DNA from: an uncultured Gemmatimonadota bacterium
Lineage (GTDB): Bacteria; SM23-81; DAOVCL01
Length of the DNA stretch: 60,606 nucleotides
NCBI GenBank assembly: GCA_964626665.1
Contig: CAZVGK010000005.1
Coordinates: forward strand, 60,069-120,674
Direction of reading: 5' to 3'
This document shows positions 3,394 through 4,175 of this stretch, piece by piece. The notes below the pieces were generated by a model. That model saw only the letters and a list, made by a program, of their open reading frames with translations, did no database searches and was not told where the DNA came from. The translations under genes were made by a program, and so were the position numbers. Positions within the stretch are counted from its first letter, which is position 1. Each line of letters opens with the position of its first letter.

Positions 3394-3681
3394 TAGAAAC
3401 AGCGCCTTCACCTCGTCTGTTACCAACTTTTTGTCAAAGGCCTGGCCAATAAGTTTCACTTTGCTAAAGTCATCTTTGCACATAGGGAAGATGTAAACTG
3501 AATCCTTTTCTTCATCAACCAGACTTTTTATCTTCAGGCCCAATTCATCAATCCTGTTGAGGTTGAGGTCACCGAGGAAGACTGACTTCTGCACCCGATA
3601 AATGCCAGTCCCCAGACAGATCTTGGCCACTTTAGTGCGAACCTTATTATCCTGTATGTCGTAGATCACCCAAGTAAGCAT
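3391..3681 (-). CDS. cas2: CRISPR-associated endonuclease Cas2 (start re-assigned to ATG 3681, 96 aa)
   Basis: WVIYDI...RVQKSVFLG...DSVYIFP motifs; GGGGG SD-like sequence before 3681; the longer ORF-track N-terminus is translated heptamer repeat. Confidence 0.95.
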
Positions 3682-3689
3682 GATGCCCC

Positions 3690-3757
3690 CAGAGAGACGA
3701 GAAACGAGAAACGAAAGACGAAAGAGGCGAAGAACGAGAGGCAAAAGGCCGAAAGAC
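3690..3757. repeat. Heptamer tandem repeats (AGAGACG/AGAAACG/AAAGACG), downstream arm of cassette 2
   Basis: Inverted relative to 4139-4175. Confidence 0.9.
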
Positions 3758-3772
3758 AATAAAAAATGAAGG

Positions 3773-4138
3773 CTAATTGGCTTTCTTGCCTTCCAGATTT
3801 TGAATAGTTGAAACCAATAGAGCGATAATTTCATCTATTTCTCCAGTGCGTTTTGTAACAAGTTCTTCTGGCAGAAATTTCTTAGCTCTTAAATACCAGC
3901 CTTTTGTCTCTCTTGCTTCCCCCCGAGATATCCGAAGATGATAGCTGAACTCCTTTGTTGAACCTCTCCCATAACCTTCTTCGAAATTAGCACTGATAGA
4001 ACCAGCAGAGCGAACGACTTGACGGGCGATTTCCCGCCCTCGAATATCACGCATCAACAAATCCGTGTCTTTCATTACATTTTTAAAAAATTCCAGTGCC
4101 TTCAGGTATAACGGATAATTCAGCAAAGGGTCTACCAT
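3773..4138 (-). CDS. Four helix bundle protein #2 (start re-assigned to ATG 4138)
   Basis: [42 protein letters not shown] signature. Confidence 0.92.
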
Positions 4139-4175
4139 CTCTTTTGTCTCTCGTTTTTCATCTCTCGTCTTTCCT
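4139..4175. repeat. Heptamer repeats (minus strand AAAGACG AGAGATG AAAAACG AGAGACA), upstream arm of cassette 2; encodes the last cas1 codons and stop
   Basis: cas1 ends AGG AAA GAC GAG AGA TGA within the repeats. Confidence 0.85.

Follow-up and report, generated by a model that had tools for sequence, protein, structure and literature searches.

The closest described counterparts of the element considered here are the intervening sequences (IVSs) of 23S rRNA, known from Coxiella burnetii and Leptospira (PMC4990558). In Coxiella, according to that source, the IVS is 428-444 nt long, possesses a stem of 28 bp formed by terminal inverted repeats, and is cut by RNase III in the middle of this stem. 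As far as the literature searched extends, IVS-type elements have so far been described in print only inside 23S rRNA genes, and a search of main texts found no published description of such cassettes in protein-coding operons or in cas loci. Here we describe a unit of this type, cassette 2, located between the cas1 and cas2 genes of a CRISPR locus in an uncultured Gemmatimonadota bacterium, within a 60,606-nt stretch of contig CAZVGK010000005.1 (assembly GCA_964626665.1), the whole of which is referred to as the window. Cassette 2 resembles the IVS in its protein family (S23p/PF05635), in its size (~485 nt), in enclosing an open reading frame (ORF) within terminal inverted repeats that form a stem (predicted here at ~40 nt), and in being embedded in a longer transcript, while the host differs, being a protein-coding cas operon in one case and helix 9, 25 or 45 of 23S rRNA in the other. 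We consider it likely that cassette 2 is an IVS-type passenger element lodged in a very short cas1-cas2 spacer, with a predicted helix that encloses the cas1 stop and buries the cas2 start. This reading is built on the anatomy of the unit and its family, on a repeat that does not arise by chance, on the recurrence and the replacement of such units at the same junction and on a comparison of Cas1 tails, all of which were observed or computed directly. Its appearance is that of an exchangeable selfish cassette rather than of a proven, purpose-built switch.

The features of the junction, in window coordinates, are these:

5138-4158, minus strand: cas1, 325 codons plus TGA (PF01867, E 2.8e-84)
4139-4175, minus strand: 5' arm of cassette 2 in transcript sense, about five purine-rich heptamers (GAAAGAC, GAGAGAT, GAAAAAC, GAGAGAC, AAAAGAG)
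4138-3773, minus strand: IVP2, the PF05635 gene between cas1 and cas2, 121 aa, intact
3691-3726, minus strand: 3' arm of cassette 2 in transcript sense, pyrimidine-rich heptamers complementary to the 5' arm
4146-4186 with 3680-3719, minus strand: long-range helix enclosing cassette 2, predicted by folding
3690-3679, minus strand: cas2 start region, GGGGG at 3690-3686, then CATC, then ATG at 3681-3679, paired in the predicted helix
3681-3391, minus strand: cas2, 96 aa (PF09827, E 3.6e-22)

Every gene of the cas region is on the minus strand. In profile searches, the TIGR00287 match spans Cas1 residues 2-323, and IVP2 belongs to the 23S rRNA intervening-sequence proteins (S23p/PF05635; E 1.8e-16, 60.7 bits versus a cut-off of 33.8) as well as to the four-helix-bundle family TIGR02436 of NCBIfam (74.6 bits versus a cut-off of 24), its sole solved relative by sequence being PDB 2rld (E 2.5e-5). 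Alignments of cas2 homologs begin at residue 1. A repeat search delimits the inverted repeat of cassette 2 as 3692-3726/4139-4173, 35 nt in length, 83% complementary and 412 nt apart, and arm-like units continue past the 3' arm to ~3749, with direct copies at 3707-3731 and 3723-3747. When the 62 nt preceding the IVP2 start were compared with the 91 nt that follow its stop for their best gapless complementary segment, the segment formed by the arms scored 20, versus a mean of 8.9 (sd 1.4, maximum 17.5) for dinucleotide-preserving shuffles of the flanks, none of 1000 reaching 20; neither was this score reached at any of 2000 random places of equal spacing in the genome (maximum 12.5). This test was used instead of RNA duplex folding of wide flanks against random places, which provided no discrimination (control mean -107 kcal/mol). 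A proposal that the heptamer arms carry stops in all three frames was rejected, as the 5' arm of cassette 2 stops the cas1 frame only. A first-pass annotation of this DNA had the coordinates and the sequence strings of cassette 2 right, and it had correctly described the opposite arm as running up to the cas2 start, the arm at 3726-3692 being followed by GGGGG-CATC-ATG.

The same annotation credited the arm with providing Cas1 with its C-terminus and stop. The 3' end of cas1, AGGAAAGACGAGAGATGA (4175-4158), encodes RKDER-stop, with the TGA (4160-4158) placed inside the 5' arm. Related loci were taken as the best 80 of 300, and both the cas1 and the cas2 ends are present in 76 of the 80. Across these loci, the conserved Cas1 core ends in ...FECHxIANxLIK, and the tails beyond LIK, of 0-25 residues, share no common sequence. 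In the window, ILR replaces LIK, its R aligning with the conserved K, and the first three heptamers of the 5' arm encode KDER and the TGA, so the claim is true for four codons and the stop, the initial R being a conserved position. KDER occurs in no other Cas1 tail compared. The cassette-free locus L091, with a tail that reads ...AKDEKER, shows that K/D/E/R-rich tails also occur natively in Cas1. KDER is short, and there was no sign in these tails of its importance to the protein. As a separate observation, the last 7-8 conserved codons of cas1 (4176-4196), reading SLANEILR versus the usual RIANxLIK, are identical to same-genus loci at 11/22 nt, and the sequence just upstream is identical at 108-109/135 nt. 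It is also these bases that are predicted to pair with the GGGGG and the ATG of cas2; either the replaced tract extends into cas1, or the codons have adapted to pairing.

Replacement at this junction is seen in the closest loci, L017 and L028, in which Cas1 is 85% and 90% and Cas2 is 94% and 90% identical to the window proteins, and the gene of the cas2-cas4 cassette of L017 is 91% identical to that of the window. At the cas1-cas2 junction, both possess a different gene, with GGAAAAT-type arms, whose sole BLASTP match with IVP2 is limited to 34 residues with 15 identities, the same junction being occupied by unrelated PF05635 subfamilies (25% identity). Homology with these loci breaks off behind the LIK/ILR codon and is restored precisely at the ATG of cas2; in the DNA comparison with L017, 108/135 columns are identical upstream, 11/22 in the last conserved cas1 codons and 8/21 in the arm. 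In the metagenome runs X20 and X21, one contig each, ~84-91% like the window on the flanks, joins 3681 to 4195 with 531 other letters between them, and samples of this kind therefore also contain a relative in which another cassette occupies this junction. A weak joint at cassette 1, the corresponding unit between cas2 and cas4 (2871 to 3352, run X21; one contig, side 23, depth 2.9), was too short to count. IVP2 is single-copy in its genome and was not detected, at E 1e-10, in the two same-genus and the four same-phylum genomes searched. Its nine detectable relatives, 59-69% identical over nearly the full length, are encoded in metagenome-assembled genomes labelled Planctomycetota, Anaerolineae, Chloroflexota, Neomarinimicrobiota, and Stahlbacteria, at other, non-CRISPR operon junctions; GAAAGAY-type purine arms are found in seven of the nine, and in several the upstream stop is again supplied by a GATGA unit. 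Judging from these sequence comparisons, cassette 2 is horizontally acquired and exchangeable between close relatives.

A PF05635-type gene is present between cas1 and cas2 in eight of the 76 loci, about one in ten, with gaps of 418-569 nt and with at least three other arm families (GGAAAAT-, GTGTAAG-, and GACAGAG-type). It is absent from the other 68, where the median gap is 6.5 nt: the two genes overlap in 22 loci, and are separated by 0-12 nt in 22, by 13-60 nt in 13, by 61-200 nt in six, and by more than 200 nt in five. When a spacer is only a few bases long, the arms of a hairpin-armed insert will therefore necessarily touch both genes, and the shortness of the spacer alone accounts for the geometry that the first-pass annotation found striking. 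In L023 (4466-4620), the 150-nt cas1-cas2 spacer consists of two complementary ACAGACA-type arm arrays with no gene, an arms-only hairpin, and this locus has another PF05635 gene upstream of cas1. At L070:4469-4998, L087:2214-2747, L088:4469-5269 and L089 (archaeal, Methanophagales/ANME-1-labelled), the junction is occupied by two small co-oriented ORFs, of 77 or 166 aa and of 70 aa, which may represent a toxin-antitoxin-like pair.

Folding of 3660-4200 (minus strand) as RNA results in a minimum free energy of -170.7 kcal/mol (z -4.1, with none of 100 shuffles as stable) and predicts the pairing of 4146-4186 with 3680-3719, in agreement with the long-range pairing suggested by the first-pass annotation. 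The predicted helix extends beyond the repeat arms. Its best stretch, at 4170-4146, comprises 24 predicted pairs with one mismatch, and the five G that precede cas2 are predicted to pair with UUCUU of the I-L codons of cas1, four of these being G-U pairs, with pairing predicted for the AU of the cas2 ATG as well (probabilities 0.77-0.98 in the 3660-4200 context), the partners of GGGGG and AU being located at 4176-4186. Such a helix is predicted to enclose the cas1 stop and the cas2 start in all nine cassette-bearing loci. When the pairing probability was taken over positions -15 to +3 of cas2, in equal contexts of 700 nt, its mean was 0.78 for the cassette-bearing loci (n=9, range 0.69-0.93) versus 0.53 for the cassette-free loci (n=57; Mann-Whitney p 2e-6), with 0.38-0.67 in 11 loci with other inserts and 0.74 in the window. 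In silico, as these fold models have it, the cassette does bury the cas2 start. A terminator-like hairpin with a U-run after the IVP2 stop (~3750-3790) was considered and rejected, the scan making no call and the fold having a z of -1.2, and a simple, weak consensus scan of the minus strand inside cassette 2 detected no sigma-70-like site.

The layout recurs elsewhere in the same operon, the features being:

2829-3382, minus strand: cassette 1, between cas2 and cas4, with the layout of cassette 2
3348-2932, minus strand: IVP1, the second PF05635 gene, in cassette 1 between cas2 and cas4 (E 2.3e-38)
2826-2242, minus strand: cas4

The arms of cassette 1 (2829-2875/3336-3382 in the repeat search) are 47 nt long and 81% complementary, one of them stopping 2 nt short of the cas4 ATG (2826), and the heptamers are GAGCAAG-type, those of cassette 2 being GAAAGAC/GAGAAAC-type. 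The layout that the first-pass annotation had presented as a second instance with another repeat family is thus found at cassette 1 and in 9/9 cas1-cassette-cas2 loci. PF05635 has 16 matches in the genome (3.17 Mb, 99.65% complete), and a reading of their flanks showed almost all copies to lie between inverted arms built of tandem units of 7-9 nt, the unit differing from cassette to cassette. A uniform analysis of arms, with a score threshold of 13 and heuristic ORF calls, covered 26 cassettes: nine of these 16 copies (four transposon-borne copies, one decayed, one in the CRISPR array, and one sub-threshold were excluded), eight cas1-cas2 cassettes of other genomes and the nine relatives of IVP2. 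Arms with a score of at least 13 were found in 23 of the 26. The upstream stop is inside the 5' arm in 15 of 22 cassettes and no more than 29 nt before it in 6 of 22, and the downstream start is between -12 and +19 nt from the end of the 3' arm in 20 of 22; in L033, one of the two outliers, the true ATG is inside the aligned arm. In most cases, the downstream start directly adjoins the arm, and no Shine-Dalgarno motif precedes it.

The PF05635 genes of this genome are not retroelement Avd genes, as no reverse transcriptase (PF00078) match was found in the 99.65%-complete assembly and the score of the Avd equivalog NF033474 is not reached (IVP2 no hit; IVP1 41 bits versus a cut-off of 80). Four of the 16 matches fall within 7.6 kb at the CRISPR locus (C5:59103-66654), namely those of cassettes 1 and 2, one that has decayed (window 6335-6604), and one at the far end of the CRISPR array. 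The decayed copy is part of a third cassette (window 6110-6672, minus strand), located between the cas3-side genes and a DUF6036 nucleotidyltransferase gene and having AAACCGTTT-type arms; its gene covers profile positions 1-82 of 106 only and contains an internal TAA, and is therefore read as decayed. The array itself follows cas4 (37-nt repeat, period 71-78; window ~1-2069 and upstream, L107:7074-10138 = C5:59073-62137). The far end of the array is a mixture of degenerate CRISPR repeats, heptamer arm arrays of AATTGAGAATTATG type and a hairpin unit, interspersed with one another and including three identical copies of 216 nt, and an intact PF05635 gene is present there (L107:7074-7424, minus strand), pointing to a fourth cassette in or at the array trailer. 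Yet another cassette, with ATCGGTA-type arms, is carried inside a unit of 503-510 bp (C7:75679-76188, C11 at ~79790-80292, the end of C60, and the end of C59) that has inverted ends TAACTATTT...AAAATGTTA, is flanked by direct repeats of 8-9 bp at each of three insertion sites, and thus resembles a non-autonomous transposon carrying the cassette. An Rfam search of the four loci of this multi-copy cassette returned 0 matches, and it is therefore not in rRNA.

As to the mechanism, we envisage a passenger unit consisting of a PF05635/TIGR02436 gene and two inverted arms of tandem heptamers. The 5' arm takes the place of the variable Cas1 tail after ...LIK, giving KDER and the TGA, and the 3' arm, along with the GGGGG-CATC linker, makes up the whole sequence that precedes the ATG of cas2. 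Once transcribed as part of the operon, the arms would form the ~40-nt helix in vivo, and expression of cas2 would depend on the removal of this helix, more likely through cutting of the stem by RNase III, as in the rRNA IVSs, and less likely, for this copy, through melting of the 5' arm by ribosomes terminating cas1. RNase III excision is demonstrated for the IVS (PMC4990558), and by analogy the stem of cassette 2 would be a candidate RNase III site in the cas transcript. The genome encodes a homolog of RNase III (rnc; PF14622, E 1.5e-37).

A number of observations weigh against this interpretation. The helix stands as a prediction: folding was modeled at equilibrium on 540-700 nt, the outcome varies with the context chosen, and no RNA run containing this stretch was found. 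The best stretch of the helix, 25 nt in length, has the cas1 TGA at its center, and a mid-stem cut by RNase III could therefore yield a cas1 mRNA without a stop. The unrelated two-gene inserts of L070 and L087-L089 possess no long-range arms and leave the cas2 start unburied (pairing probability 0.38-0.53), and therefore the host operon needs no arms. The arm duplex is stabler in the sense than in the antisense orientation in just 6 of 12 cassettes, with 89 versus 82 G-U pairs, the set being 12 of the 16 PF05635 matches (excluding the duplicate C11 copy, two contig-end fragments, and one sub-threshold match); for cassette 2 alone, the energies are -66.0 (sense) and -60.8 kcal/mol (antisense), with 13 versus 5 G-U pairs. 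With no bias toward the sense strand, the arms may be kept as DNA repeats.

This last point leads to the best surviving alternative, which we find possible though rather improbable: that the arms act at the level of DNA, as ends for insertion, replacement, or gene conversion, the RNA helix being incidental. Besides the equal quality of sense and antisense duplexes, the precision of the replacement at the arm boundaries agrees with this, as do the arms kept without a gene in L023 and the mobile appearance of the 503-510-bp shell around the other cassette, with its terminal inverted ends, its flanking direct repeats, and at least three copies. Similarity of genes and similarity of arms also go together, weakly, among 28 cassettes (Spearman 0.17, reached by 19 of 2000 permutations), a value confounded by shared operon context and by some automatic start choices that were off. 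Against an action on DNA, no recombinase or transposase is linked to the cassette, a reading of both junctions reveals no target duplication at the flanks of cassette 2, and the rRNA IVSs, its known relatives, work as RNA stems. To our knowledge, no DNA-breaking activity has been assigned to the four-helix-bundle protein, which also counts against such a role.

Less probable still is the proposal that the arms are a selected device for translational coupling, in which the helix hides the ribosome-binding site of cas2 and a ribosome terminating cas1 melts the base of the stem, restoring stop-start coupling across 480 nt. In 44 of the 68 cassette-free loci, cas1 and cas2 overlap or are no more than 12 nt apart, so coupling is plausibly ancestral. 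In 9/9 loci, the helix has the stop in its 5' strand and the start at its 3' strand, which fits the proposal, but insertion into a spacer of 0-12 nt is trivially enough to produce this layout; the excess of pairing at the cas2 start over cassette-free loci and the starts that abut an arm without a Shine-Dalgarno motif fit it as well, while the G-U bias expected of a sense-strand structure is absent. When a 30-nt ribosome footprint was masked on the cas1 stop in an equilibrium fold model, pairing of the cas2 start decreased in all nine loci (mean 0.78 to 0.63, versus 0.78 with a control mask), the effect being strong in L028, L033, and L054. In the window, however, masking opens nothing (0.74 to 0.72, and 0.66 to 0.64 in another context), because the freed pyrimidine arm pairs elsewhere. 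The statement of the first-pass annotation that ribosomes finishing cas1 would unwind the stem beside the cas2 start is not supported for this cassette by the model, and a coupling function of the cassette 2 arms is, as far as the modeling goes, not supported as stated.

A more elaborate scheme, which we offer as speculation and hold to be quite unlikely, would make the helix an RNA bridge that joins the cas1 stop to the cas2 start at the base of the stem, letting a selfish gene live in a tightly coupled operon, with the stem then removed by RNase III or by terminating ribosomes; such cassettes might even have been preferentially recruited to CRISPR adaptation operons, given a local excess of ~35-fold, and might set the Cas1:Cas2 ratio. 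If true, this would define a new class of RNA-level 'self-insulating' mobile elements acting on the genes of immune memory.

The excess in question comes from a tblastn search of the first 40 of the 80 loci (~221 kb), in which 10 loci contained at least 12 PF05635-type genes versus ~0.3 expected from 177 matches in ~114 Mb (40 genomes), a count biased by the choice of loci through a cassette-bearing Cas1 and by kin that share inserts. A role of the four-helix-bundle protein as a functional accessory in CRISPR adaptation, where it would tune or assist spacer acquisition, is suggested by this excess and by the cluster of four matches at the CRISPR locus of the present genome, but it is very unlikely, as the gene is missing from 68 of 76 related loci, one copy at this locus has decayed, the nearest relatives of IVP2 are in non-CRISPR operons, and cas operons may simply tolerate and spread inserts, which is how we read the excess, with subfamilies of 25% identity replacing each other at the junction.

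Two further observations concern the neighborhood. Directly upstream of cas1, within the cas locus, is a DUF6036/DUF2204 nucleotidyltransferase gene (183 aa; window 5339-6062, minus strand), preceded by a 60-codon ORF. In the CRISPR array, two adjacent repeat-spacer units are 100% identical (L107:8762-8911, window ~694-843), and therefore one spacer has been duplicated.

Overall, a unit of the IVS type at this position gives Cas1 a new end, provides cas2 with its entire leader, and is exchanged among close relatives at a single junction. This bears on how Cas1 and Cas2 are expressed, two proteins whose assembly requires a fixed ratio, and also on annotation, as Cas1 tails and so-called CRISPR-associated four-helix-bundle genes may be misread. 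It also presents a tractable natural case of how selfish inserts survive inside translationally coupled operons.

When compared with known systems, cassette 2 is unlike the IVS in that its arms are tandem heptamer arrays and in that they overlap the tail and the stop of Cas1 and the start region of cas2. Coupling of translation between neighboring cistrons through long-range RNA pairing is known from the coat and replicase genes of phage MS2, and in cassette 2, likewise, the downstream start is predicted to be paired with translated sequence of the upstream gene; unlike in MS2, the pairing partner comes from an inserted mobile cassette, and the masking test does not predict dependence on upstream translation for this copy. 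Intercistronic RNase III sites were reportedly described by Dunn and Studier in 1973 for the early mRNA of phage T7 (cited in PMC4990558), and the long stem between cistrons in cassette 2 is similarly a potential processing site, with the difference that it encloses a whole gene and contains the upstream stop. Compact repeat-bounded units that are located between genes and exchanged between genomes include miniature inverted-repeat transposable elements (MITEs), repetitive extragenic palindromes and bacterial interspersed mosaic elements (REP/BIME), and integron gene cassettes, and cassette 2 shares with these its compact, repeat-bounded, intergenic, and exchangeable nature. It is distinct from a MITE or from a transposon with terminal inverted repeats and target-site duplications in having no terminal target duplication, and from an integron gene cassette in that, instead of an attC-type single site, it possesses two arms that flank one ORF.

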